A DNA stretch of 64,000 bases. Origin: Mustelus asterias (lineage: Eukaryota). Where the stretch lies: the NCBI RefSeq assembly GCF_964213995.1, contig NC_135807.1, positions 73,284,001 to 73,348,000 on the forward strand, given 5' to 3'. Each line of letters opens with the position of its first letter. The first letter of the stretch is position 1. Below the pieces are notes generated by a model. It had not been told where the DNA came from. It did not search any database and saw only the letters and a list, made by a program, of their open reading frames with translations. Shown piece after piece: positions 6,392-60,399 of this stretch. The translations under genes and the position numbers were made by a program.

Positions 6392-9300
6392 ATGTGGTTG
6401 ACTCTTAGCTGCCCTCTGAAATGGCCTAGCAAGCCACTCAGTTGTAACAATCGCTATAAAGTCTCAACAAAGAAATGAAACCGGACGGGACCACCTGACA
6501 TTGACCTTGGCACCGGAAAAGACGATGGCAAAGCAAACAGCCCTGTCGACCCTGCAAAGTCCTCCTTACTAACATCTGGGGGCTAGTGCCAAAATTGGGA
6601 GAGCTGTCTCACAGACTAGTCAAGCAACAGCCTGACATAGTCATTCTCACGGAATCATACCTTACAGATAATAGCCCCAGACACCACCATTACCATCCCT
6701 GGATATGTTCTATCCCACCAGCAGGACAGACCCAGCAGAGGCGGCACAGTCGGGAGGGAGTTGCCCTGGGAGTCCTTAACATTGACTCCGGATCCCATGA
6801 ATCTCATGGCTTCAGATTAAACATGGGCAAGGAAACCTCTTACTGGTTACCATGTACCGCCCTCCTTCGGCTGATGAATCAGTATTCCTCCATATTGACC
6901 AACACTTGGAGGAAGCACTGTGGATGGCAAGGGCGCAAAATGTATTCTGGATGGGGGGATTTCAATGTTCACCACCAAGAGTGGCTCAGCAGCAGCACTA
7001 CTGATCGAGCTAGTCAGGTCCTAAAGGATATAACTGCTAGACTGGGTCTACAGCAGGTGGTGAAGGAACCAACAAGAGGAAATAACATACTTGACCTCAT
7101 CTTTACCAATCTGCCAGCTGCAGATGCAATGGTCCATGACAGTATCAGAAAGAGTGACCACCGCACAATCCTTGTGGAGACGAAGTCCCGCCTTCACATT
7201 GAGAATAACCTCCATCGTGTTGTGTGGCACTATCACCGTGATAAGTGGGGCAGACTTCAAACCAATCTAGCAACTCAAGACTGGGCATCCATGAGGTGCT
7301 GTGGGCCATCAACAGCAGCGGAATTGTACTCCAGCACAATCTGCAATCTCATGTCCCAGCATATCCTCCATTCAACCATTACCATCAAGCCAGGGGATCA
7401 ACCCTGGTTCAATGGAGAGTGCAGGAGTGTGGTGAACCATCGTTGGTTCCCACTAGATAGTACTGAGCCAGGGTCTGGCCAGTACTACAAGTATGTATAT
7501 ATGTTGCTGTTGGGGTTAGGGATGGGTTGTTCTACTTGTTGCTGTTGGGGTTAGGGTTGGGCTGTTACACCTTGTATTATAGTTATTGTGGTTCATCCCA
7601 GTCGGGCTCCACCTCCTGGGAGAGGTATAAAGGTCTCTGCTCTGTCTGGGACCCCTCAGTCTGGGATCGTGTATATAATTAGTAGCTTCATTGTTACAGC
7701 AAATAAAAGCCTTTATTTCCTGAGCATCTCAAGCCTCGTGTGTGATAACGTGCATCAAGGAGGGCCTGCCAGGAGCAGCACCAGGCATGTCTAAAAATGA
7801 GGTGTCAACCGCTTGAAACTACCAAACAGGATTACTTGCATGCCAAATGACAAAAACAGCAAGTGATAGACAGAGCTAAGCGATCCCACTACCAACGGAT
7901 CAGATCTAAGCTCTGCAGTCTTTCCACATCCAGTCGAGAATGGTGGTGGACAATTAAACAACTCACTGGAAGAGGAGGCTCCACAAATATCCCCATCCTC
8001 AATGATGGAGGAGCCCAGCACATCAGTGCAGAAGATAAGGCTGAAGTATTCGCAGCAATCTTCAGCCAGAAGTGCCGAGTGGATGATCCATCTCGGCCTC
8101 CTCCAGTGGTCCCCAGCATCTCAGATGCCAGGCTCCAGCCAATTCGATTCACTCCACGTGATATCAAGAAACGGTTGGAGGCACTGGATACTGCAAAGGC
8201 AATGGGCCCTGATAACATTCCAGCAATAGTAATGAAGACTTGTGCTCCAGAACTTGCCGTTCCCCTAGCCAAGCTCTTCCAGTACAGTTACAACACGGGC
8301 ATCTACTCAACAATGTAGAAAATTGCCTGTACACAAAAAGCAGGACAAATCCAATCCGGCCAATTACAGCCCGATCAGTCTACTCTCGATCGTCAGTAAA
8401 ATGATGGAAGGGATTATCAACAGTGCTATCAAGCAGCACCTGCTCAGCAATAACCTGCTCAGTGATGCCCAGTTTGGGTTTCACGAGGGTCACTCAGCTC
8501 CTTTCCTCATTACAGCCTTGGTTCAAACATGGACAAAAGAGCTGAATTCCAGGGGTGAGGTGAGAGTGACAGCCCTTGACATCAAGGCCGCATTTGACCA
8601 AGTGTGGCATCAAGGAGCCCTAGCAAAACTGGAATCAACGGGACAAATTCTCCGCTGGTTGGAGTCATTTCTGGTACATAGGAAGGTGGTTGTGGTTGTG
8701 GAGGGTCAGTCATCTCAGCTCCAGGACATCTCTGCAGGAGTCCCTCAGGATAGTGTCCTAGGCCCAACTGTCTTCAGCTGCTTCAATGGCCTTCCCTCCA
8801 TCATAAGGTCAGAAGTGGGGTTGTTCGCCAATGATTGCACAATGTTCAGCACCATCCGCGACACCTCAGATACTGAAGCAGTCCATGTTCAAATGCAACA
8901 AGATCTGGACAATACCCAGGCTTGGGCTGACAAGTGCCAAATAACATTCACGCCACACAAATGTCAGGCAATGACCATCACCAATAAGAGACATGCTAAC
9001 CACCGCCCCTTAACATTCAATGGTGTAACCATCACTGAATCCCCCACTGTCAACATCCTTGGGGTTACCATTGACCAGAAACTCAACTGGACTCACTACA
9101 TAAACACAGTGGCTACAAGAGCAGGTCAGAGGCTAGGGATACTGGGGTGAGTAACTCACCTCCTGACTCCCCAAAGCCTATCCACCATCTAGAGGGCACA
9201 AGTCAGGAGTGTGATGGAATACTCCCCACTTGCCTGGATGGGTGCAGCTCCAACAACACTCAAGAAGCTTGACACCATCCACGACAAAGCAGCCTGCTTG

Positions 9301-9720
9301 ATTGGCACCACATCCACAAACATTCAAAACCTCCACCACCAACGCTCAGTAGCAGCAGTGTGTACTATCTACAAGATGCACTGCAGCAATTCACCAAAGG
9401 TCCTTAGACAGTATCTTCCAAACCCACAACTACTTCCATCTAGAAGGACAAGGGCAGCAAATAAATGGGAACACCACCACCTGCAAGTTCCCCTCCAAGC
9501 CACTCACTGTCCTGACTTGGAAATATACCGCTGTTCCTTCACAGTCACTGGGTCAAAATCCTGGAATTCTCTTCCTAATGGCATTGTGGGTCAAACCACA
9601 GAACATGGACTGCGACGTTTCAAGAAGGCATCTCACCAGCACCTTCTCAAGGGCAACTAGGGATGGACAATAAATGCTGGCCAGCCAGCGACACTCATGT
9701 CCCATGAATGAATTTTTAAA
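6392..9720 (+). pseudogene. Decayed single-ORF LINE (APE endonuclease + RT, CR1-group-like), split by a solo LTR
   Basis: APE motifs TNIWGL, DIVILTES, GDFNVHH, LDLIFTN, SDH; RT motifs KAMGPDNIP, NYSPISLLS, DIKAAFD, GVPQDSVLGP, FANDC; frameshifts and stops; tail caagggcaactagggatgg...atgaatgaa. Confidence 0.9.
7428..7757 (+). mobile_element. Solo LTR (330 bp)
   Basis: TG...CA ends, 5-bp TSD aggag (7423-7427, 7758-7762), TATAAA at 7626, AATAAA at ~7702; removing it restores LINE continuity. Confidence 0.85.
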
Positions 9721-17788: not shown

Positions 17789-20700
17789 TAGAACATAGAA
17801 CATAGAAAAGCTACAGCACAAACAGGCCCTTCGGCCCACAAGTTGCGCCGAACATGTCCCGACCTACTAGGCTTACCTATAACCCTCTATCTTACTAACT
17901 TCCATGAACTTATCCAAAAGTCTCTTAAAAGATCCTATCGAATCCGCCTCCACCACCACTACCGGCAGCCGATTCCATGCACCCACCACCCTCTGAGTGA
18001 AAAACTTACCCCTAACATCTCCTCTGTACCTACTCCCCAGCACCCTAAACCTGTGACCTCTTGTGGCAACCATTTCAGCCCTGGGTAAAAGCCTCTGAGA
18101 ATCCACTCTATCAATACCCCTCAACATCTTATACACCTCTATCAGGTCACCTCTCATCCTTCGCCTCTCCAAGGAGAAAAGACCTAGCTCTCTCAACCTA
18201 TCCTCATAAGGCATGCCACCTAATCCAGGCAACATCCTTGTAAATCCCCTCTGCACCCTTTCTATGGCTTCCACATCCTTTCTGTAATGAGGCAACCAGA
18301 ACTGGGCACAGTACACCAGGTGGGGTCTGACCAGGGTCCTATACAGCTGCAGCATTATCTCCCGATTTCGAAACTCAATTCCTCTATTGATGAAGGCCAG
18401 TATTCACCACAGCCTCCACCTGCGACGCTGCTTTGAGCGTCCTATGAACCTGGATCCCAAGATCCTCTGATCTTCCACACTGCCAAGCATCTTACCCTTA
18501 ATATTATATTCTTTCATCCTATTCGACCTGCCAAAATGAACCACCACACACTTATCTGGGTTGAAGTCCATCTGCCACTTCTCCGCCCAGTCTTGCATCT
18601 TATCTATGTCTCGTTGCAACTGCTGACATCCCTCTACACTATCCACAACCCCACCAACCTTTGTGTCATCAGCAAACTTGCCAACCCATCCTTCCACTTC
18701 CTCATGCAGGTCATTTATAAAAATCACAAAGAGCAAGGGTCCCAGAACAGATCCCTGGGGCACTCCACTGGTGACCGACCTCCATGCTGAAAAAGACCCA
18801 TCTACAACCACTCTTTGCCTTCTGTGGGCAAGCCAGTTCTGAATCCACAAAGCAATGTCCCCTTGTATCCCATGCCCCTTCACTTTCTCAATGAGCCTTG
18901 CATGGGGCACCTTATCAAACGCCTTGCTGAAATCCATATAAACTACATCTACTGCTCTTCCCTCATCTATGTGTCTAGTTACATTTTCAAAAGATTCAAT
19001 TAGGCTCATAAGGCATGATTTGCCTTGGACTATTGCTGGCTATTTCTGATCCAGATGTTCATAAATCCTGCCTCACAGGATCTTCTCCATCAACTTACCA
19101 ACCACTGAGGTTAGACTCACTGGTCTATAATTTCCCAGGCTATCTCTTCTCCCTTTCTTGAATAACGGAACCACATCCGCCATCCTCCAATCCTCCGGAA
19201 CCTCTCCCGTCTCCATTGATGACTCAAAGATCATCGCCAGAGGCTCAGCAATCTCTTTCCTTGCCTCCCACAGTAACCTGGGGTACATCCCATCCGGTCC
19301 CGGCAATTTATCTAACTTGATGCTTTTCAAAAGCTCCAACACATCCTCTTTCCTAATGTCCACATGCTCAATCTTCTCAGCCCACTGCAAGTCTGCACTG
19401 CAACTACCAAGATCCTTTTCCACTGTGAATACTGAAGCAAAGTATTCATTGAGTACCTCTGCCATTTCTATCAGTTCTATAGAGACTTTCCCACCATCAC
19501 ATTTGATACATCATACTCCTTCACATTTTATCCTCTTGCTCTTAACATACTTGTCGAATGCCTTGGGGTTTTCCTTTATCCTGTCTGCCAAGGCCTTCTC
19601 ATGACCCCTTCTTGCTCTTCTAATTTCCCTCTTGAGTTCCTTCCTACTAGTCGTATACTCTTCTAGATTTCTAACATTACCTAGCTCCCTGAATCTTTTG
19701 TAGGCTTTTCTTTTCTTCTTGACTAAATTCGTTACAGCTTTCGTGCACCATGGTTCCTGTGACCCACCATAACTTCCCTGTCTCATTGGAACGTTGCTGT
19801 GTAGAGCTCCAGACAAATTTTCCTTGAAAATTTGCCACATTTCTTCTGTACATTTCCCTGAGAAAACCTCCTTCCAATTTATGCCTCTAATTTCCTGCCT
19901 AATAGCCTCATAATTACCCTTACTCCAAATGAACACTTTCCTAGCTTGATTGATCCTATCTGTCTCCAATGCTAATGTAAAGGAGATAGAGTTATAATCA
20001 CTATCCCCAAAATGCTCTCCCACTGAGAGATCTGACACCTGCCCAGATTCATTCCCTAATACCAAATCAAGTACAGCTTCTCCTCTTGTAGGCTTATCCA
20101 CATACTGTGTCAGGAAGCCCTCCTGAACACACCTAACAAACTCCTCCCCATCTAAACCCTTTACCCTAGGGATATTCCAATCGATATTTGGGAAATTAAA
20201 ATCTCCCATCACGACCACTCTGTTATTATCACATCTCTCCAGGATCTGCTTCCCAATCTGCTCCTCCACATCCCTGCTACTATTGGGCAGCCTAGAGAAA
20301 ACACCCAGTAAAGTTATTGACCCCTTCCTGTTGCGAACCTCCACCCACAGAGATTCTGTAGACAATCCCTCTGTGGCGTCCATCTTTTCTACAGCTGTGA
20401 CACTATCCCTGATCAACAGTGCCACTCCCCCACCTCTTTTGCCTCCTTCCCTGTCCCTCCTGAAACATCTGAAACCTGGCACTTGAAGTATCCAGTTCTA
20501 TCCCTGAGATAACCAAGTCTCTGTAATGGCCACCATACTTCCAAGTAGTGATCCACGCTCTAAGCTCATCCATTTTGTTCACTACACTCCTTGCGTTAAA
20601 ATTCACACATCTCAACCCTTCGGTCTGAGCGCTCCCCTTCTCCGTCATCTGCCTATCCTCCCTCTCTCACTGTCTACAAGCCCCTTTTATTTTTAAGCTA

Positions 20701-20910
20701 ACCTCCTCTCTCCCAGTCACCTCATTTCGATTCCCACCCCCAACCATTCTAGTTTAAACACTCCCCAGTAGCCTTAGCAAACCTTCCCGCCAGGATATTG
20801 GTCCCCCTGGGATTTAAGTGAAACCCGTCCTTTTTGTACAGGTCGCACCTGCCCCTAAAGAGGTCCCAATGATCCAGGAACCTGAATCCCTGACCCCTGC
20901 TCCAATCCCT
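17789..20910 (-). mobile_element. CR1 LINE (ORF1 C-terminus + fragmented ORF2)
   Basis: ORFs 19511..20482 (APE), 19073..19465, 18404..19009 (FADD), 17873..18355; (ttctatg)n tail; ORF1 DGFHLN motif; internal deletions. Confidence 0.95.
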
Positions 20911-31010: not shown

Positions 31011-34000
31011 AAAGAACAAAGAACACTACAGTACAGGAACAGGCCCTTTGGCTCTCCAAGCCTGCACCGATCACGTTGTCCTATCTGGACCAACCACCTG
31101 TGTCCCTCTATACCCCACCTGTTCATTGTGTCTATCCAGATAAGTCTTAAATGTCACTAACGTATTTGCCTCAACCACTTCACTTGGCAGTCATCCCAGG
31201 CCCCCACCACCCTCTGTATAAAAAACTTCCCACACACATCTTCATTGAACATTTCCCCCCTTATCTTGAACTTGTGCCCCCTTGTAATTGTCATTTCTGC
31301 CCTGGGAAAATGCTTCCAACTGTTCACCCTTTCCGTACCCCTCATAATTTTATAAACTTCTATCAGGTCGCCCTCTCAGCCTCCGTCTTCCCAGGGAGGG
31401 CAATCCTAGTTTATTCAATCTCTCCTCATAGCTAATACCCTCCATCCCAGGCAACATCCTGGTAGACCTTTTCTGCACTCTCTCCAAAGCCCCCACATCT
31501 TTCTGGTAGTGTGGTGACCAGAATTGGACACAGTATTCCAAATGTGGCCTTACTAACGTTTTATATAACTGTAACAAAGTTTGCCAACTTTTGTACTCAT
31601 TGACCCATCCGATGAAGGCAAGCATGCCATAGCTTTCTTCGCCACCTTTTCCACCTGTGCTGCCACTTTTAAGGACCTGTGGACTTGTTCTCCCAGATTT
31701 CTCTCTGTGTCTATGCTCCTGATAGTTCTGCCATTTATTTTATAGCTCCCGCCTGAATTGGATCTACCAAAATGCATCACCTAGCATTTGTCCAAATTAA
31801 ATTCCATCTGCCATTTCTCTGCCCAATTTTCCAGCCTATCTTTATCCTGCTGTATTCTCTGACAATCTTCATTGCTATCCGCAACTCCGCCAATCTTAGT
31901 ATCATCCGCAAACTTTCTAATCAGACCAGCTACGTTTTCTTCCAAGTCATTTATATATATTACAAACAGCAGAGATCCCAGCACTGATCCCTGTGGAACA
32001 CCACTAGTTACAGATCTCCATTCAGAAAAACACCTTTCCACCGCTACCCTCTGTCTTCTATGGCCAAGCAAGTTCTGAATCCATCTAGCTAGTTCACCCC
32101 TGATCCAGTGGGATTTAATCTTTTGCACCAGCCTGCAATGAGGGACCTTGTCAAATGCCTTACTAAAGTCCACGTAGACAACATCCATAGCCCTTCCCTC
32201 AATCATTTTTGTCACCTCCTCAAAAAACTCAATTAAATTAGTGAGACATGACTTCCCTCTTACAAAACCACGCTGTCTGTCGCTAACAAGACCATTCAGT
32301 TCCAAATGTGTAAAGATACTATCTCTAAGAATCTTCTCCAACAATTTCACTATCACTGACGTCAAGCTCATTTGCCTATAATTACCCGGGTTATCCTTGC
32401 TACCCTGCTTAAATAACGGGACAACATTCCTCCAATCCTCTGGGACCTCACCAGTGGCCAACAAAGAAACAAAAATTTCTGTTAGAGGCCCAGCAATTTC
32501 ATCTGTTGTCTCCCTCAGTAATCTAGGATAGATGCCATCTGGCCCTGGGCATTTGTCTACCTTAATGCCTTTTAATTCACCGAGCACTTCCTCCCTCGAA
32601 GTGATGACTTGCTCTAAAGGGTTTACACACCCCTCCGAGACGCCATCAATCGACGTGTCCCTCTCCTTTGTGAATATCAATGCAAAGTACTCATTAAGGA
32701 TCTCACCCACTTCCTTTGGCTCTCCACATAATTTCCCTCCTTTGTCGTTGAGTGGACCAACTCTTTCTCCAGCCACTCACTTGTTCCTAATATATGTATT
32801 AATCCTGTCTGCCAAGGACATTTTGTGACCGCTTTTTGCCCTCCTAACTTCCTGTTTGAGCTCTTTTCTACTTTCCCTGCATTCTTCAAATGCTTCATCT
32901 GTTTTTAGTTGCCTAGACCTCACATATGTATTCTTTTTCTTTTTGACTAGACTCACAGTTTTCCTGGTCATCCACGGTTCCTGAATCCTGCCTTTCCTGT
33001 CCTTCCTTTTCATAGGCACATACCTGTCCTGCAATCCGATCAACTGTTTCTTAAAAGACTCCCATATGCCAAATGTGGATTTACCCTCAAACAACCTCTC
33101 CCAAACAACAGCCTCCAAATCTTGCCTAATGCAGTTGTAGTTAGCCTTCCCTCAATTTAGCACCTTAACCCTTGTCCTTTTCCAGAGTATCCGGAAGCTT
33201 ACGGAATTGTGGTCACTGTTCGCCCCATGTTCCCCCACTGCAAATTTGATGACCTAGCTGGGCTCATTCCCTTATACTAGGTCCAGTATAGCTCCCTCTC
33301 TTGTCGAACTATCCACATATTGTTCCAAAAAACTTTCCTGGACACACTTAACAAGTTCCTCACCATCCGGACTCCGAGCCCGAAGTGATTTCCAGTCAAC
33401 ATGAGGAAAATTAAAGTCTCCCCCTACAACAGCCCTATTATTTTTACATCTGTCCAGAATCTGCTTACATATCTGTTCTTCAACTTCCCATGGGCTGTTG
33501 GGAAGCCTGTAGCACACACCTATCATAGCGACTGGCCCCTTCCTGTTTCTGTGTTCTACCCACAGTGTCTAATTATATGATTCTTCCAAGGTGTCCTCCC
33601 TCTGTACAGCTGTTGTGTGTTCCCTAACCAGTATTGCAACTCTCCCACTTCTTTTACCCTCTCCTCTGTCTCACCTAAAACACTTATATCCCTGAATATT
33701 TAGCTGCCCGTCCTGTCCCTCTTTTAACCCAGTCTCCATTATCGCAACTATACCCAAGTTCCGTGCAAGAATCAAGGCTCTAAGTTCATGTGTCTTACCT
33801 GTTATACTCCTTGCATTGAAGCAGATGCACTCCAGACCTCCGGGCCCACTGGGTTCGACCTCTCCCAGCCTGCGCTTCTTCTTAATCAGCCTGGCCTTGG
33901 TACCATGCTCATCCCCAGTCTCTGCACTTGCTGGCCTATTGTTCTGATTCCCACTCCCCTGCCACACTAGTTTAAACCCACCCAAACCATACTAGCAAAC

Positions 34001-40267: not shown

Positions 40268-41150
40268 TAGGGAGACAAGCAATGGTGGGGCTGGATCACA
40301 GGAAACAGGCAATGGTGGGACTGGAGCCTGGGGAGACAGGCAATGGTGGGACTGGTCTGGGGAGACAGGCAATAGAACCATAGAGCCATAGAAACCCTAC
40401 AGTGCAGAAAGAGGCCATTCAGCCCATCGAGTCTGCACCGACAACAATCCCACCCAGGCCCTATCCCCGTATCCCTACATATTTACCTGCTAATCCCTCT
40501 AACCCTCATATTTACCCACTAATCCGTCTAATCTATGCATCCCAGGACACTAAGGGGCCAATCAACCTAACCTGCCCATCATTGGACTGTGGGAGGAAAC
40601 CGGAGCACCCAGAGGAAACCCGCGCAGACACGGGGCGAATGTGCAAACTCCGCACAGACAGTGACCGAGCTGGGAATCAAACCCAGGTCCCTGGAGCTGT
40701 GAAGCAGCAGTGCTAACCACTGTGCCACCGTGCCGCAATGGTGGGACTGGAGCCTGGGGAGACAGGAAATGGTGTGACTGGTCTGGGGAGACAGGAAATG
40801 GTGTGACTGGTCTGGGGAGACAGACAATGGTGTGACTGGTCTGGGGAGACAGACAATGGCAGGACTGGAGCCTGGGGAGACAGACAATGGTGTGACTGGT
40901 CTGGGGAGACAGGAAATGGTGTGACTGGTCTGGGGAGACAGACAATGGCAGGACTGGAGCCTGGGGAGACAGACAATGGTGTGACTGGTCTGGGGAGACA
41001 GACAATGGCAGGACTGGAGCCTGGGGAGACAGACAATGGTGTGACTGGTCTGGGGAGACAGGAAATGGTGTGACTGGTCTGGGGAGACAGACAATGGCAG
41101 GACTGGAGCCTGGGGAGACAGACAATGGTGGGACTGGATCCCAGGAGACA
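40268..41150. repeat. Minisatellite with 29- and 31-bp unit variants
   Basis: ggggagacagacaatggtgtgactggtct / ggggagacagacaatggcaggactggagcct, interrupted by a SINE. Confidence 0.95.
40374..40734 (-). mobile_element. HE1-type V-SINE inserted in the minisatellite
   Basis: Matches 29-382; 5-bp flanking repeat gcaat (40369-40373, 40735-40739). Confidence 0.9.
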
Positions 41151-41234
41151 TGTACATCAGGGTCAGAGAGGGCAAGGTCTTCAAAGCCAGGGGAGGTTGA
41201 GATTTTTTGTTGTTTTGATAGCACCGGGAGGAGA

Positions 41235-41410
41235 CAGTGACTGAGTGGGTGAGTGAATGAATGTGTGGGAGTGAGTGGGTGAGTGACAGAGTGAGTGGGT
41301 GTATGAGAGTGAATGCAGGTTAGTGACAGAATAAGTAGGTGTATGAGAGTGAGTGGGTGTGGGAGACTGAGTGGGTGTATGAGTGGGGGTGAGAGACTGA
41401 GTGTGTGGGT
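41235..41410. repeat. Degenerate (gagt/gtgg)n simple repeat
   Basis: gagtgggtgagtgaatga... low complexity. Confidence 0.8.
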
Positions 41411-42399
41411 CGGGCTTGGTGTGAATCTACCTTATGCCTAGTGTCAGTTTTCTCACTCTCTCTCACCACTACACACTAACACGCACCCACATCTTCCACC
41501 CATATACACTGACTCTTCAAAATTCAGGTCATTTTTATTGTTTATACTTTTTAATGCAACAGTTCATTGCTATGACATTGTTTCACATTTGTCCATCAAC
41601 TGTTTCTTTCCTTAAAACCTCAACTTTTTCTGATATTCAGTTCGTTGTTGTGCCAAACATTATCCTTCCAAAATCTGCTCATCTGTCCCTCTAGTGAGAG
41701 AACTATGCAAATGTGGCCCAGCGAGTGAAAAGGCTGGACAAGCCTGGACCAGAAAGTGCAAAAAGGGTAAAGTGCCAGTGATAAACACTCTCTATTTGAA
41801 TATATGCAACATCCGTAACAAAATAGTTGCATTGTTAGCACAGATAGGAATCTGTATGTATGACCAATGGCCATTACATGTGAGTCATACATGGATGTGA
41901 ATAATACACTCCCAGATTGGGTGCATTCCCCATGGTGCCAAGCGTAATATCGGGCATGATGATGCCAAGCAGTTGTTTGCAACAATACCTCATGTTCAGG
42001 GATAAAAGTTAGAAACCTGCTCACGTTGTTCAAATTTCAATTTAGAAAGTAATTAAGGTAATTAAGGACTCAATTGAGAGCAATAATATGCTTTGAAGGC
42101 AATAATACGCCTTCAGGGTGAGAATCATGCCGTGTGGGGAATTCATGTTTTAAAGGTCCAGCTTGTTTGGGGAGTTGAAAAACTTCAGCCGAGAAAAGAG
42201 TTAACACATCAATGACTGCAGGGAGCGCTCATTCCAAAGAGCAGACTATCCATTTTCTGATCATTTGAGCTGGAAGCCTTTCCTCTGACGTGGAGGACTC
42301 TTCTGAGTACCAGATTTACTCCTGGCCATTCCCAGGACTATAAGGTCTCTGAGACAAATGGACATTGTGGCCTCTGTTGGAGACCTCTGATTGGTACAG

Positions 42400-48200: not shown

Positions 48201-49640
48201 CTACAAAAACCTATTGACTAAGCATCATTTTCTTTTTGTAGGCAACTTATACTTTAAATTACAGAGCAGAGATTCCACATTTAACTTGTAGCAAGACAGA
48301 CAATCTCCTGCTATAGTTCTAGATTATGCTGTCCCTTAAATGGGTACTTCATCCTTCAGGATCCACTCTACAATTATTCTCAGCTCCTGATGGCTTTACT
48401 TTCCCTGCCAGATAACTTCTGATTCTAGATTGACTTTCACTGTGAGGGTTACACTGGAAATTCCATCCCTCTAGCCCAAGCTAGGCAAATCTCCAAACCT
48501 CTTCAATCTAAGCACAAGCTGCCAACCACATCTTGCATGGTGAACAACCCAGTCAGTACTTTGTCTACTTCAGGTGCAGGACTGATTGCCTTGTTCAACT
48601 GCTCTTTGCCTTTTAGATCAATGCAGATCACTCCAAACCAACACTTTCTGTTCCGTGATAGTCATTAATTTGTCGGGAAACCTATAACCTGATCCCTAAA
48701 ATTGCTTCCTCTGCTCTCTTCCCAATAGCAACACAAAACACATTTGCTGGAATTTTCCAGCTGTTTACTCCAGCGAGACCTTCTGGTCTTGTCAATGGTG
48801 CACCCCGGCTATGGGTTCCCCAGTGGTGATGGGTACATTCAACAGGAAACCCCATTGACAGTGGTGGGACCAGAAGATCCTGTCACTGTTCAGATGGATA
48901 TAAAAGATCCCATGACACCATTTGGAGAAGGGAAGTTATCCCCAGTGTTCGAGCCAGTACCTGTCTCTCAATCAACATCATAAAAAATAGATTATCTGGA
49001 TCTGTAAATGTTGACAGAATATGAATATTAGTCTTTGATGCTGACACAACTGGAGCAGTAAAATTTATTCACTGATAATTCAATGACTGCTGCATTGTGT
49101 CCAAGGGTAAATATCTTGCACCTTCTCCTCAGGAAATCGTTCTAAACCTTCCTCTGACCTCCAGCCATGCCTACTGACAGGCAGACTTCAGAACTCTGTC
49201 ACATGACCGCCTTCATTTACTCTACATTTAAAGCAGGTCAATCTGCATGGTTTAAATTTGAAAAAAGCCAGGCAGTTAAGTGTTCCAAGTTGCGTTCTCC
49301 TTGGCAACGCCTCCACCAATCAGAGTTCATTTTCCAAACAATCAACACACTCTTCTCACGGACTATAAATTGTTGTTCCCCCATAGTGTTGGAAATTTCT
49401 TGTGAGCTATCCTGATACGTACAAGGTGATAGCATGTCTCCTTTTTCCAGCAGAATTTTTGAAAAACTACAAAAGACCTTGCATTTATTTAAGCACCTTT
49501 AATGCCCTTTGGATTTCCCAAACTGCTTCATAGACAATTAAGTTCTTTTTATGTACAGTATCTGCTGTAAGAACAAAGAACAATACAGCACAGGAACAGG
49601 CCCTTCGGCCCTCCAAGCCCGTGCCGCTCCCTGGTCCAAA

Positions 49641-52586
49641 CTAGACCATTCTTTTGTATCCCTCCATTCCCACTCCGTTCATATGGCTGTCTAGATAAGT
49701 CTTAAACGTTCCCAGTGTGTCCGCCTCCACCACCTTGCCCAGCAGCGCATTCCAGGCCCCCACCACCCTCTGTGTAAAATATGTCCTTCTGATATCTGTG
49801 TTAAACCTCCCCCCCTTCACCTTGAATCTATGACCCCTCGTGAACGTCACCACCGACCTGGGGGAAAGCTTCCCACCGTTCACCCTATCTATGCCTTGCA
49901 TAATTTTATACACCTCTATTAAGTCTCCCCTCATCCTCCGTCTTTCCAGGGAGAACAACCCCAGTTTACCCAATCTCTCCTCATAACTGAGCCCCTCCAT
50001 ACCAGACAACATCCTGGTAAACCTCCTCTGTACTCTCTCCAAAGCCTCCACGTCCTTCTGGTAGTGTGGCGACCAGAACTGGACGCAGTATTCCAAATGC
50101 GGCCGAACCAACGTTCTATACATTTGCAACATCAGACCCCAACTTTTATACTCTATGCCCCGTCCTATAAAGGCAAGCATGCCATATGCCTTCTTCACCA
50201 CCTTCTCCATCTGTGACGTCACCTTCAAGGATCTGTGGACTTGCACACCCAGGTCCCTCTGCGTATCTACACCCTTTATGGTTCTGCCATTTATCGTATA
50301 GCTCCTCCCTACATTATTTCTACCAAAATGCATCACTTCGCATTTATCAGGATTGAACTCCATCTGCCATTTCTTTGCCCAAATTTCCAGCCTATCTATA
50401 TCCTTCTGTAGCTTCTGACAATGCTCCTCACTATCTGCAAGTCCTGCCAATTTTGTGTCGTCCGCAAACTTACTGATCACTCCAGTTACACCTTCTTCCA
50501 GATCGTTTATATAAATCACAAACAGCAGAGGTCCCAATACAGAGCCCTGCGGAACACCACTAGTCGCAGGCCTCCAGCCGGAAAAAGACCCTTCCACTAC
50601 CACCCTCTGTCTTCTGTGACCAAACCAGTTCTCCACCCATCTAGCCACCTCCCCCTTTATCCCATGAGATCCAACCTTTTTCACCAGCCTGCCATGAGGG
50701 ACTTTGTCAAACGCTTTACTAAAGTCCATATAGACGACATCCACGGCCCTTCCATCGTCAGCCATTCTGGTCACTTCTTCAAAAAATTCTACCAGGTTAG
50801 TGAGGCATGACCTCCCTCTCACAAAACCATGCTGACTATCGTTAATGAGTTTATTCCTTTCTAAATGCGCATACAGCCTATCTCTAAGAATCTTCTCCAA
50901 CAACTTCCCCACCACGGACGTCAAGCTCACCGGCCTATAATTACCCGGGTTATCCTTCCTACCCTTCTTAAATAACGGGACCACATTAGCTATCCTCCAA
51001 TCCTCTGGGACCTCACCTGCGTCCAGTGGCGAGACAACGATTTGCGTCAGAAGCCCAGCGATTTCATCTCTCGTCTCCCTGAGCAGCCTTGGATAGATTC
51101 CATCAGGCTCTGGGGATTTGTCAGTCTTTATATTTTCTAACAAACCTAACACTTCCTCCCTTGTAATGGAGATTTTCTCCAACGGTTCAACACTCCCCTC
51201 CGAGACACTCCCAGTCAACACATCCCTCTCCTTTGTGAATACCGACGCAAAGTATTCATTTAGGATCTCCCCTACTTCTTTGGGCTCCAAGCATAATTCC
51301 CCACTTTTGTCCCTGAGAGGTCCGATTTTTTCCCTGACAACCCTTTTGTTCCTAACGTATGAATAAAATGCCTTGGGATTCTCCTTAATCCTGTCTGCCA
51401 AGGACATTTCGTGACCCCTTTTTGCCCTTCTAATTCCCCGTTTGAGTTCTTTCCTACTTTCTTTGTACTCCTCCAGAGCTCCCTCCATTTTTAGCTGCCT
51501 GGACCTAACATACGCCTCTCTTTTCTTTTTGACCAGTCCCTCAATTTCCCTGGTTATCCACGGTTCTCGAATCCTACCCTTCCTATCCTTTTTTACAGGC
51601 ACATGCCTGTCCTGTAGACCTAACAACTGTTCCTTAAAAGACTCCCACATGCCAGATGTGTATTTACCCTCAAACAGCCTCTCCCAATCAAGAGCTGCCA
51701 ATTTCTGCCTAATCCCACTAAAGTTAGCCTTCCCCCAATCCAACACCTTACCCTTGGGACACCACTCATCCTTTTCCATCACTATCCTAAAGCTAACAGA
51801 ATTGTGGTCACTATTTGCCACATGTTCCCCTACCAAAACTTTGAAGACCTGACCGGGCTCATTCCCCAGTACTAGGTCCAGTATAGCCCCCTCTCTAGTC
51901 GGGCTATCTACATATTGTTCCAAAGAACCCTCCTGTACGCATTTCACAAATTCCTCCCCATTCAGAGTCCCAGCTCTCAGCAATTTCCAGTCTATACCAG
52001 GGAAATTGAAGTCTCCCACTACAACAACCCTATTTTTCCTGCACCCATCCAGTATCTCTTGACATATCCGTTCTTCCACTTCCCTTGGGCTGTTGGGGGG
52101 TCTGTAGTATACCCCCAACATAGTGACTGTGCCCTTCCTGTTTCTAAGCTCCACCCAGAGTGACTCGTTACACGACCCCTCTGAATTGTCCTCCCTCTGC
52201 ACCGCTGTAATATGCTCTCCAACTAATACTGCTACTCCCCCACCTCTTTTGGCCCCTCCTCTGTCTCGCCTAAAACACTTGTACCCCGGAATATTCAGCT
52301 GCCAGTCCTGTCCCTCTTTCAACCAAGTCTCTGTCACCGCAACCACATCCAAATTCCTTGTGAGCATTAAGGCCCTAAGTTCGTCTGTCTTACCTGCTAC
52401 GCTCCTTGCATTGAAGTATAAGCACTCCAGACCTCCAGGCCCAGTGAGGTCATCCTCCCCCAGAGTGCTCTTCTTCTTTGCCAGCCTTGTCCCAGCCCCA
52501 AGCTCGTCCCCAGCCTCTACACTTGTAGACCTAATATTTTGATCCCCACCCCCCTGCCATACTAGTTTAAACCCCCGCGAACTGCA
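49641..52586 (-). CDS. CR1 ORF2 (APE endonuclease + reverse transcriptase); stop-free from 52586, first AUG only at 52367
   Basis: 908-aa track ORF with VAVTETW, GDFN, SDH, GVPQGSVLGP, FADD; upstream in-frame extension KLVWQGGGD...LECLYFNARS read by hand. Confidence 0.9.
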   Translation of the reverse strand, partial: CSSRGFKLVWQGGGDQNIRSTSVEAGDELGAGTRLAKKKSTLGEDDLTGPGGLECLYFNARSVAGKTDELRALMLTRNLDVVAVTETWLKEGQDWQLNIPGYKCFRRDRGGAKRGGGVAVLVGEHITAVQREDNSEGSCNESLWVELRNRKGTVTMLGVYYRPPNSPREVEERICQEILDGCRKNRVVVVGDFNFPGIDWKLLRAGTLNGEEFVKCVQEGSLEQYVDSPTREGAILDLVLGNEPGQVFKVLVGEHVANSDHNSVSFRIVMEKDEWCPKGKVLDWGKANFSGIRQKLAALDWERLFEGKYTSGMWESFKEQLLGLQDRHVPVKKDRKGRIREPWITREIEGLVKKKREAYVRSRQLKMEGALEEYKESRKELKRGIRRAKRGHEMSLADRIKENPKAFYSYVRNKRVVREKIGPLRDKSGELCLEPKEVGEILNEYFASVFTKERDVLTGSVSEGSVEPLEKISITREEVLGLLENIKTDKSPEPDGIYPRLLRETRDEIAGLLTQIVVSPLDAGEVPEDWRIANVVPLFKKGRKDNPGNYRPVSLTSVVGKLLEKILRDRLYAHLERNKLINDSQHGFVRGRSCLTNLVEFFEEVTRMADDGRAVDVVYMDFSKAFDKVPHGRLVKKVGSHGIKGEVARWVENWFGHRRQRVVVEGSFSGWRPATSGVPQGSVLGPLLFVIYINDLEEGVTGVISKFADDTKLAGLADSEEHCQKLQKDIDRLEIWAKKWQMEFNPDKCEVMHFGRNNVGRSYTINGRTIKGVDTQRDLGVQVHRSLKVTSQMEKVVKKAYGMLAFIGRGIEYKSWGLMLQMYRTLVRPHLEYCVQFWSPHYQKDVEALERVQRRFTRMLSGMEGLSYEERLGKLGLFSLERRRMRGDLIEVYKIMQGIDRVNGGKLSPRSVVTFTRGHRFKVKGGRFNTDIRRTYFTQRVVGAWNALLGKVVEADTLGTFKTYLDSHMNGVGMEGYKRMV

Positions 52587-53290
52587 CTAGCAAAACTCCC
52601 AGCCAGGATATTCGTGCCCTTCCAACTTAGTTGTGACCCGTCCTTCTTGTACAGGTTCCATCCTCTCCTGAAAACTTCCCATTGATCTAGGAAAATGAAG
52701 CCCTCCCTCCTGGACCAGTCCTTTAGCCAAGCATTCAATTGTACTAACTCCCTATTCTTAGCCTCACTGGCACGAGGCATTGGGAGCAGCCCAGAGATGG
52801 CCACCCTGGAGGCCCTACTTTTTAGTCTATTTCCCAACTCCCTGAATTGCTCTCGTAGGATCCCCCTGCTCTTCCTATCTACGTCATTTGCACCAATGTG
52901 TACAATGACATCCGTTTCTTTATCTTCCCCTTTTAAGATGCCTCCTATCCGCTTGGAAACATCCATTACCCCAGCACCAGGTAGGCAGACTACCATCCTG
53001 GAGTCCCGTTCGCACCCACAGAATCGCCTGTCCATGCCTCTAACCGACGCATCCCCCACCACTATTGCTCTCCTAACCCCTCTCTTTCCTTTCTGGGCCA
53101 CAGAGCCTGACTGTGTGCCAGTGACCTGGTCACTGTGGCTTACCCCTGGAGAGTCATCCTCCTCCACACTATCCAAAACAATATACTTGTTTTGGAGTGG
53201 GACAACCACAGGTGACCCCTCCACCAATTGCTCACTCTCCTCCCCTCTCACACCTGTCGCCGAGCCCTTCCTATTATGAGAGACAGCCAC
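52562..53290 (-). CDS. CR1 ORF1, SGNH-esterase-like domain (N-terminally truncated)
   Basis: AIVVGDASVRG, CLPGA, HIGANDV, ISGLLP, LYKKDGSQLS blocks; zinc finger absent. Confidence 0.85.
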   Translation of the reverse strand: MAVSHNRKGSATGVRGEESEQLVEGSPVVVPLQNKYIVLDSVEEDDSPGVSHSDQVTGTQSGSVAQKGKRGVRRAIVVGDASVRGMDRRFCGCERDSRMVVCLPGAGVMDVSKRIGGILKGEDKETDVIVHIGANDVDRKSRGILREQFRELGNRLKSRASRVAISGLLPMPRASEAKNRELVQLNAWLKDWSRREGFIFLDQWEVFRRGWNLYKKDGSQLSWKGTNILAGSFASAVRGGLN

Positions 53291-54239
53291 TGGAGTACTC
53301 TTTGGTACGTTACCCTTCTGACCTTTACTGTACTGTCGAGAAACATAGCAGCCAAATTACACATAGTAAGGTTCCAAAATCAGGAATAAGAGAATGATCA
53401 GGTAAATTGTTTAAGTGACTTTGGTGAATGATGAATTTTGGCTTGGATACTGGGAGAATACAGTGTTTTTTTCTGAATAGTGTCATGGGATTTTTTATGT
53501 ACATATATGGGAGCAACCACTTGTCAAGGAAGAGATACCTAACTGGTGGAAAGGGGCTTTCATGAGGGTCAGCAGGACAGCACAAAGGGTACCAAGACAA
53601 CTTGGACCTGACCTTGATTAGTGGATGGATGTCTGACCCCAGAAAGATCAATTTGTTGTACATAGCACAAAGGATAGTGAAACCTTGGTGAGCATTCGTT
53701 ATTGTGCATGAAATGTCTGCACATTTTAAAGTCTTCACTGCACAGCTGTACATATGGCCTGCTCAGAGCTCTAGCAATTAAGACATTTGTTCACTGCTTG
53801 AGGAATGTGTATTAGTGCAGGCAAAGAGTGATCGGCTGATTTCTATCTGATGACTTATCCAACCAATTCTAAAAGGGAGAAATACCGATACACCCATAGT
53901 GTTCTGGCCAGGTGATACTCATGAACAGAATCGAATCAGCCTGCATGCTCTATGAAGCTGGGGTCAGCTTCAGTTACCAAATATGGTGTTCTGCAAAAGC
54001 AATTCTCTTTTTTTGAATCTTAGATCAATTGAATTTAAAGAAACATTAATTTACTCTTGAATTGTTCCAAAATGAGTCAATCACATCTCGAGTATAAAGG
54101 AAAAGATCAGAAACATCATTTGCAATCAGATTGCCTAAGTAGTCTAAAAGACAAGTGTAGAACTGACTACAGTTCAAGAAATTATAAAATGCTGAGTGGG
54201 ATGATTCAGGTTCCATGATATATTCAAAATTGTAACATT

Positions 54240-57959: not shown

Positions 57960-59690
57960 TGGGGTAAATTGGATGGGCCCCAAAAGCAGGCATGGGTAGC
58001 GCAATATGCGATTAGCTCACACCTATTGATTGAAATGAAAGCAGCATGCCAACTTAATGCTACCTGCTCAATCATTGTTATTGGCTGCACACATTAGCAG
58101 AGGGCCAATAGCGTAACTTTGTAACCACATAAAGCTAGCCCGCATTGCTTAAAAGGGAGGTGCATTGTGGCTGATGCTTGTTCTGCCAATTATACAGGAA
58201 ATGAGTTGGCAAGGTCAGTGAATGCATCTTTAAATGTTATATCCTACTACCTGCACCACTAGTCCCATACACTGCTCCATGCACATGTTCATCCCTCACC
58301 TACCAACAGTTTCTATCAAGCTAGTCTCATGTAACATTGATAGCTTCACCTCACCCTGACACACTTATCACTGCTGTAAGTCTCACATTCACATCTCACA
58401 GCAAGCACTCTTTGCAGCAATTCAACCATGTCAGCTATACCACCCAAACAGATTGCGCCATCCCCACTGACACTCTTCTCTCTTTCTTGCAGGGTGTCTA
58501 GAGAAAGCGGGGACTAACCAAAGAGGGACAAGCAAAACTGCGTGTCTTAGCTTCCATGGAAGAGACAGTGTTGGCCATTTTTGGAACGGCCATTGATAAG
58601 GGTGTGGCAAGCAGTGGTGCTGAAATCAAATATGTCAGTGTCCTCATATGTAATCTTCTTTCTCACATCACATTTCCCCCGGATTCTACAATCACTTCTG
58701 ATTTACGAGCTGCAGGTCGTGTAAGCAGATTTCTCCCCACCCTCCCCTCACTGCAACCTTCTCCTTGTGTCTTTCTCCTTTCAGATATCCAGGAGGTGAG
58801 GAAGTGGCAGTGGAGGCACAACAAGAAGATAGTGATAACGCTGCAGAGGACTCAGATGGGAACTTTGATAGGGCAGCCTACAACACTGATGGATATGTAG
58901 AACAAAATGCTAAGTGCACTGGGAAGCCTTCCAGAAAGCCTGCCTTTGATGACAAGGAGCATGGAGGAGTCAGCATCAACTTGGCACAGGGCTTTTGTAA
59001 CCCATCTTTTCAGGCATAGAAGTAGTGACCAATTTCATTTACATACTTGAGAGGCCCAACCATGATGGCTAATGTAATAACTTCCATTGCAGCACAAACA
59101 GCAACTCCAATGTTTAAGTGCTGCAATGGAAGCTCTGACCAAGATTGTGTAGGTTCAGATTGCTGTCACCATCACTGTGGGTTGCAATGTACAAAGAGGC
59201 TTGCAGGCTGTTACAGTCTAGCAATCTGCTTTCCAACACATTATAATGAGTGCTGAGGGGCACTCTCCCCAGGCCTCCAAGGTGAGTGGCAGTGACTCCA
59301 TGGAGCAAGATCCTGCTGTTCTCTCTCAGGGTAACAGCATTCTTCTTCCCACCCTTCTACTCTGCTGGTGCCCTTGCTGCTACCTGTAGACTGCTGGCCC
59401 TCACACCGAGGTGGTGCAGTTGGCAGCTGGGCTTTCTAAGGTCAGAGTTGCTTGAGGTGATCCTCCAAGTCTATCTGCAGTTTTCTTCATTAAAAATCAC
59501 AAGACCTTCAGCAGCAATGCTGCAGTCATTGGGGAACACTGCATGGAAGACAGCCACTAAGTGAATGTTAGGAGTGTTTAGTTTAGATTTGCACACTGTT
59601 ACATGGTTTAACTCATATATTTGGCTTGAAATCTTTATTTGTGACTTTTATTTTTGCATTGTGGCCTAGAGGACACTGTGATAATGAATG
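57960..59690 (+). pseudogene. Probable Harbinger/PIF-derived Myb/SANT (NAIF1-like) gene remnant with intron-exon traces
   Basis: Acceptor tctctctttcttgcag (58492) then GQAKLRVLASMEETVLAIFG, like the TGGG..LTPxEExVL motif; second acceptor tttctcctttcag (58784) then acidic stretch; outer limits uncertain. Confidence 0.45.
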
Positions 59691-59692
59691 AG

Positions 59693-60108
59693 GTGAGTAG
59701 GGGAGTGACAGCGAGTAAAGGAGTGACGGAGAGTAGGGGAGTGACAGAGAATAGGGGAATGACAGCGAGTAGGGGAGAGTAGGGGAGTGACAGAGTGGGG
59801 GAGAGTAGGGGAGTGAAGGAGAGTAGGGGAGAGTAGGGGAGTGAAGGAGAGTAGGGGAGAGTAGGGGAGTGACAGAGAGTAGGGGAGAGTAGGGGAGTGA
59901 CAGAGAGTAGGGGAGAGTAGGGGAGTGACAGAGAGTAGGGGAGAGTAGAGGAGTGACAGAGAGTAGGGGAGAGTAGGGGAGTGACAGAGAGTAGGGGAGT
60001 GACGGAGTAGGGAGAGTAGGGGAGTGACAGAGGAGGGGAGAGTAGGGGAGTGACGGAGAGTAGGGGAGAGTAGGGAGTGACAGAGAGTAGGGGAGTAACG
60101 GCGAGTAG
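59693..60108. repeat. Purine-rich minisatellite (gagtagggga / gagtaggggagtgacaga)
   Basis: Direct tandem repeats with many GGGG runs. Confidence 0.95.
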
Positions 60109-60185
60109 TTTCCTATCTGGACTGGAAACTTTGGTGGAAAGGGAAATGGGTGCAACATTAGAATCAGCTCCCACCCAAAGATATC

Positions 60186-60322
60186 GGGCCAAATTTTCTA
60201 GTCCCGCCTGCTGCGGGAATGGTAACGGGCAGGAGAGAAAATTTGGTGGACCATTTAAAGGTTCATTGACCTCAGGTGGGATTCTCCGGTCTTGGGGTGC
60301 ACGGGGCCAGAGAATCCCGCCC
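60186..60322. mobile_element. MITE, Harbinger-like
   Basis: TIR gggccaaattttct / agagaatcccgccc; internal cattgacctcaggtgggatt is the inverse of the 24248-24266 segment; flanks atc/ata. Confidence 0.6.
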
Positions 60323-60399
60323 ATAAGCCTTAAAACTTGTTTTTCTATCTGCCCAAAACTAGTTCAGACTTTTGGTCCTGCTGCAGGTGGTTTGAAGTC

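Follow-up and report, generated by a model that had tools for sequence, protein, structure and literature searches.

The window analysed here is a 64,000-nucleotide stretch of the Mustelus asterias genome (NC_135807.1, positions 73,284,001 to 73,348,000), whose minus strand carries, around 52.6 kb, a long interspersed nuclear element (LINE) with two open reading frames, ORF1 and ORF2 (Table 1). We take the element to be a CR1, a label that comes from the first, sequence-only reading of this DNA, from the homology of its ORF1 to amniote elements and from general knowledge of the family. The copy is truncated at its 5' end near 53330 (approximate). Its ORF1 frame (52562-53356, minus) terminates in ...GGLN-stop and carries an SGNH esterase domain, the PF13472 match exceeding the family cut-off. 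Its ORF2 frame runs for 981 codons from stop to stop and carries an APE endonuclease (APE) and a reverse transcriptase (RT). The subject of this work is the junction between the two, where a slippery heptamer, U_UUA_AAC, adjoins the ORF1 stop codon and probably directs a programmed -1 frameshift.

The sequence-only reading had ORF1 ending on this heptamer in the correct phase, ORF2 open across it in the -1 frame, the first ORF2 AUG beyond the first APE motif and the AUG just after the stop out of frame; checks of the sequence and of the frames bore out all of these points. Thus, 52573-52562 on the minus strand reads ggT TTA AAC TAG, and ORF1 closes there on Gly-Leu-Asn and the stop. Counted from the heptamer, ORF2 is open for 976 codons. 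The AUGs met past the site lie in the +1 frame (52560), in the 0 frame (52453 and 52411) and then, for the first time, in the ORF2 frame (52367), by which point the Asn of the first APE motif, NARS, has been passed. The peptide FKLVW, earlier read across the site, stands as a conceptual translation of the -1 frame and not as the expected product. In the standard model of tandem slippage the product retains the Leu-Asn of ORF1 and would here go on with Leu-Val-Trp-Gln.

Table 1. Features of the LINE junction at 52.6 kb and its two further copies in the window (positions of the window)
Feature	Position	Strand	Basis or remark
U_UUA_AAC heptamer, in X_XXY_YYZ phase with ORF1	52565..52571	-	sequence; invariant in 10/10 subfamily groups
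ORF1 stop UAG, adjoining the heptamer	52562..52564	-	UAG or UAA in 11/11 groups
Closest upstream stop of the -1 (ORF2) frame	52587..52589	-	caps the ORF1/ORF2 overlap at 25 nt
G-tract, beginning 11 nt past the heptamer; candidate stimulator	52544..52554	-	GGGG at +11..+14 and GG at +19..+20 invariant
ORF1, 3' part; SGNH/GDSL esterase	52562..53330	-	Pfam PF13472, E 2.8e-08; homologs
Linker without AUG, junction to APE motif 1	52416..52561	-	only the -1 frame open
ORF2 frame, APE endonuclease and reverse transcriptase	49641..52586	-	PF03372, PF14529, PF00078
Earliest in-frame ORF2 AUG	52365..52367	-	15 codons beyond the Asn of NARS (52412)
Short 3' untranslated region with TGTTCTT-type repeats at its end (end approximate)	49569..49640	-	read from sequence
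Second CR1 copy, decayed	33967..33976	-	heptamer and stop shared; NARS in the -1 frame
Third copy, another subfamily	20749..20758	-	heptamer and stop shared; G-run one base short

The junction is repeated within the window, as had been claimed. An exact scan found TTTAAACTAG three times, always on the minus strand and each time at a LINE ORF1 end (52562-52571, 33967-33976 and 20749-20758), against a chance expectation of 0.12; three occurrences were reached in 0 of 100 shuffles. The limit on the ORF1/ORF2 overlap is identical in the three copies. In the copy at 33.9 kb the first in-frame AUG (33739) again comes after NARS (33817). Two caveats had been attached to the copy at 20.7 kb, a missing base and an AUG of its own at 20648. 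Both are present in that copy, where NARS is off by one, and neither is a trait of its family. Among 30 loci of the family, NARS lies in the -1 frame in 22, in the other frames in 4 and 3, and was not found in 1; 18 of the 22 in-frame copies have no Met in the linker.

Copies from the rest of this genome were gathered from several sources. Two DNA searches used the junction as the query and gave 60 loci, a set biased towards the heptamer. Two patterns anchored in ORF1 and excluding the heptamer (3,700 and 6,578 genome matches) were adopted because 200 kb of evenly spaced stretches (20 x 10 kb) had yielded only three junction matches, one of them cut off. A protein search with a query ending in LN was added. 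After the exclusion of matches more than 12 residues off the ORF1 end, near a locus edge or duplicate, 169 copies were kept. TTTAAACTAR stands at the expected place in 151 of them: in 60/60 of the junction-query loci, in 66/80 of the copies chosen independently of the junction, and in 24/27 and 1/2 for the other two sources. Where it is missing, an old copy has mostly undergone one substitution or a deletion, as dead copies would show.

The conservation extends to the level of nucleotides. From 124 gap-free copies, 11 groups with at least two members were formed, whose ORF1 identities to one another are 0.60-0.89 except for a redundant pair at 0.98. TTA encodes the junction Leu in 11/11 groups and AAC the junction Asn in 10/11; the remaining group consists of two copies, one of them mutated, so that its codons tie. 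The codon before Leu-Asn is GGT, TGT, ACT, AGT or GAT; it encodes any of five amino acids (G/C/T/S/D), and its third base is always T. As a yardstick, the last 74 ORF1 codons hold 17 other columns that are invariant for an amino acid other than Met or Trp, and a single codon is kept in 2 of these 17; in the ORF2s of eight real copies TTA makes up 16% of Leu codons and AAC 35% of Asn codons. Conservation across subfamily consensuses, named earlier as a check, was found for the heptamer and the following UA in 10/10 groups, for the most part 60-80% identical in ORF1, of a table built from heptamer-bearing copies. Nucleotides are thus conserved beyond coding need, as is expected of a programmed -1 frameshift site, and the conserved recoding-like signal at the CR1 junction is real. 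Two further features were seen in this region. The heptamer sits within a palindrome, GTTTAAAC (window 52564-52571), in many groups and not in all, the base before the heptamer being G, C or A. In ORF1 codon -9 (window 52595-52588, minus) an Ala GCT is invariant in 11/11 groups, and in most of them its T forms part of the -1-frame stop that lies upstream.

Downstream of the heptamer the -1 frame leads into the endonuclease. APE motif 1 lies in the -1 frame in 122 of the 151 heptamer copies, in frame 0 in 9 and in frame +1 in 5, and was not found in 15. The 122 linkers in the -1 frame are free of stops in 115 cases and of Met in 97. Linker length differs between families (45, 46, 47, 50, 52, 53 and 62 codons) by whole codons, so that the frame is kept, and the remaining frames of the linker contain 1-9 stops on average. 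A dinucleotide-shuffled linker is stop-free with a chance of 0.02-0.14 per representative copy; these representatives were picked as stop-free, and support for an open linker comes from the per-family counts. Upstream, the -1 frame is closed five codons from the junction in most groups, and therefore entry into ORF2 must happen at the junction.

A stimulator was sought in the neighbouring sequence. In the 10 groups of heptamer-bearing copies, G is invariant at +11..+14 and +19..+20, and the first G of the tract is kept even though the codon supplying it is CAG in some groups and TTG in others. Candidate stimulators are this fixed tract and the stop that adjoins the heptamer. A possible stem between the stop region and a GCUAG upstream of it was rejected: judged by eye, it suits the subfamily of the window copy and breaks down in two further ones. 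In some copies (L147 and L152) the G-tract has grown to a long poly-G, and single-base length changes there shift copies out of frame.

Relatives beyond this genome were compared mainly through the ends of their ORF1 proteins. Among 31 near homologs, whose named hosts are sharks, rays and skates, 20 end in LN and one in IN, and a ray gene model (P0009) reads through ...GFKL... into NARS. More distantly, 150 ORF1 representatives were collected, 95 of them with a complete esterase end. In 61 of these 95 the end is a dipeptide that XXY-YYZ can encode, compared with 2-14 at offsets 1-11. The end is xLN in 51/95, and in a single case x is a residue whose codons never end in U (background 55/306, binomial p 5e-4, which is overstated, the distant rows being related). 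All nine xGN ends are QGN, which at the protein level fits G_GGA_AAC. Named hosts of LN-ending proteins are a snake, lizards, turtles and a swallow. Viral contigs, searched for the DNA of QGN-type or amniote-type elements, yielded none, and genome contigs yielded three weak bacterial matches (27-31% identity). A metagenome locus, 36% identical, has G_UUA_AAC-UAG, a G-run and a -1 frame open into the APE motif. The distant ORF1s P0101, P0127, P0088, P0164 and P0137 include the ends FFR, FFH, FFN and KDF, which U-rich heptamers could encode.

Elsewhere in the window, 6505-9660 (plus strand) holds a decayed APE-RT LINE of another family, spread over several frames, and low-complexity tandem repeats at 40562-41431 and 59613-60363 give several overlapping open frames.

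Taken together, we consider it likely that programmed -1 frameshifting on U_UUA_AAC yields an ORF1-ORF2 fusion in this esterase-type CR1 LINE. The fusion had been suggested by the sequence-only reading, and the invariant heptamer, the open -1 linker and the absence of early AUGs from most subfamilies argue for it. Most ribosomes would terminate at the UAG or UAA and release the ORF1 protein (ORF1p). A minority would slip by -1 with tRNA-Leu in the P site and tRNA-Asn in the A site, read CUA as Leu and cross the 45-62-residue linker into ORF2. Their product would be a minor ORF1-linker-APE-RT fusion protein, and the outcome a high ratio of ORF1p to ORF2 protein (ORF2p), as in gag-pol. With less assurance, we would ascribe the pause to slow termination at the adjacent stop together with the G-tract, acting as a G-quadruplex or through a bound protein, and not to a pseudoknot. 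A wider version, in which esterase-type CR1s of vertebrates and beyond frameshift on interchangeable U_UUA_AAC, G_GGA_AAC and G_UUA_AAC, stimulated by an adjacent stop and a G-tract 10 nucleotides downstream (a G-quadruplex or protein site) and not by a pseudoknot, is tentative, and we regard it as doubtful.

Several observations weigh against frameshifting. First, the stimulator is not of the usual kind. The G-runs pointed out earlier proved to be conserved; the folding check that went with them gave no pseudoknot. In 17 elements, the predicted folds of the 75 nucleotides past the site are no more stable than those of shuffled sequence (z -1.7 to +1.0), and the G-tract has no common long-range partner, its best partners lying at unrelated places and often outside the element, pseudoknots being judged only by this absence of a partner. 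A canonical pseudoknot 5-9 nucleotides downstream is not supported by these predictions, and a G-quadruplex is predicted in only 10/17 elements. Second, coding constraint in the -1 frame, another check that had been named, came out in favour in that the frame is open and length differences come in triplets; substitutions in the linker (37/45/55 by codon position, six pairs) show a mild third-position bias only. The linker is thus held open, its residues being weakly constrained. The corresponding APE total was set aside, two of its six pairs having been misaligned by indels. Third, the evidence has biases of its own. Similarity at the junction was the basis on which 60 of the 169 copies were selected, the groups share ancestry, so that invariance among them does not amount to independent trials, and the frameshift itself we infer from sequence comparison. 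Fourth, the relatives fit incompletely. In 34/95 distant ORF1s the end is unfit for a terminal heptamer, the QGN set is known at the protein level only and is possibly one clade, and in the metagenome locus a Met falls some 28 codons after the start of the linker. Finally, two subfamilies do have an in-frame AUG before NARS. One, with at least 684 exact matches, has a UAAUG stop-start, the AUG being in the ORF2 frame at linker codon 3, which is the layout of SART1 reinitiation; the other carries a Met at codon 38 of its linker in 12/13 copies. An in-frame AUG before NARS throughout the subfamilies, which would have refuted the frameshift, was not found. The window copy and most groups have no AUG overlapping or adjoining the stop in the ORF2 frame, as reinitiation would use. 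In the UAAUG subfamily the heptamer and the G-tract are retained, so that a slippery site and a SART1-like stop-start stand together; in 15 loci fetched for it (L211-L225), the -1 frame is open to NARS in 7, NARS is out of frame in 3 and the motif is lacking in 5.

The alternative that survives best is termination followed by reinitiation. Ribosomes would stop and restart beside the stop in the -1 frame, at the AUG of UAAUG where there is one and elsewhere at a non-AUG codon. ORF2p would then be a separate protein that begins with the linker, and the G-tract would serve the restart. SART1 (UAAUG plus downstream structure; PMC2881922) and L1 (PMC5972666) are described as taking such a route, the UAAUG subfamily occurs in this very genome, and the open linker would be accounted for equally well. 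Nonetheless, we judge it unlikely. It accounts for neither the invariance of U_UUA_AAC nor the constant U ahead of Leu nor the xLN/QGN pattern, and there is no conserved start, the would-be restart codon being GTA, GAA, GAT, ATT, GTT, GTG or ATG. Even the subfamily best suited to reinitiation retains the heptamer. An invariant UGGGA was sought within the 42 positions that close with the heptamer and not found; a UGGGA-like word lies 3' of the stop here, whereas the termination upstream ribosome-binding site (TURBS) lies 5' of it (PMC5972666).

Both routes might also be in use, with frameshifting ancestral and general and the UAAUG subfamily having added, or switched to, reinitiation at its AUG. 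This overlaps with programmed frameshifting, of which it is a variant, and as a separate proposal it seems to us quite unlikely. The retention of heptamer and G-tract in UAAUG copies would agree with it, as would the sister placement of one AUG-less and one UAAUG copy (support 97/97) in a subfamily tree of 80 columns that is mostly unresolved and not reliably rooted. From such a tree the order of AUG gain versus loss, and hence the direction of any switch, is not readable, and the AUG of UAAUG may be an incidental Met codon of the linker.

Very improbable, in our view, is that ORF2 arises from a different message or a different start (an internal promoter, splicing, or a near-cognate CUG or UUG at the APE start), the junction being kept for a C-terminal Leu-Asn or for an unrelated RNA signal. 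A Leu codon does precede APE motif 1 in 15/15 representative copies, the C-terminal LN is conserved across vertebrates, and the Ala GCT at -9 is likewise invariant with no explanation. Yet a need for the peptide would leave TTA, AAC and the third base of the changing codon free to vary, and an internal start gives no reason for one frame to stay open over 45-62 codons from group to group. The contigs of four runs, possibly RNA but mostly guessed to be so, add weak evidence against a different message, with no junction indel among the matches listed and two low-depth joints in one run; contigs do not bear on translation. Readthrough of the stop was rejected on account of the stops that the 0 frame has inside the linker.

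It has long been asked how the ORF2 of LINEs comes to be translated; for L1 and SART1 the answer to date is reinitiation (PMC2881922, PMC5972666). If programmed frameshifting holds for these CR1s, their enzyme would be a fusion bearing the esterase ORF1p, and ORF2 annotations begun at the first Met would be wrong at the N-terminus. A stimulator without a pseudoknot would be an additional natural case for recoding biology; natural frameshifting stimulated by a G-quadruplex was given as not known as of 2016 (PMC5009743). A natural G-tract-stimulated frameshift would moreover lie in a repeat family that ranks among the most abundant of vertebrates, CR1 being the main repeat of birds and 11.8% of the chicken genome (PMC11835228). 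CR1 is abundant in the present genome as well.

Our literature search found no frameshift proposal for CR1; early CR1 descriptions may note the overlap. The element resembles vertebrate CR1 subgroup 7, with ORF1 of type IVB (zinc finger/leucine zipper plus esterase), as described by Metcalfe and Casane in 2014 (PMC4120745): an SGNH esterase ORF1 is followed by an APE-RT ORF2, and relatives occur in sharks, rays, reptiles and birds. Unlike the present work, that account, in the portion available to us, mentions neither a route of ORF2 translation nor a slippery site. Among APE-type non-LTR (long terminal repeat) elements, TRE5-A and TRE3-A of Dictyostelium are said to depend on a -1 frameshift for their ORF2 (PMC5911963); they differ in host and in ORF1. 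U_UUA_AAC and G_GGA_AAC are among the shiftiest heptamers on mammalian ribosomes (PMC5009743), and the available part of the same source ascribes L1 ORF2 to unconventional initiation and leaves CR1 unmentioned. As at the sites of the coronavirus infectious bronchitis virus and of the retroviral type (PMC5009743), the same heptamer stands in the right phase, with a structural protein 5' and a polymerase 3'; unlike there, the stop here adjoins the heptamer, and a G-tract was found in place of a pseudoknot or stem. With SART1 (PMC2881922) and L1 (PMC5972666) the element shares a bicistronic LINE RNA and, in one subfamily, UAAUG. It differs from both in that most of its subfamilies reach the first endonuclease motif ahead of any AUG, and every subfamily keeps the slippery heptamer.

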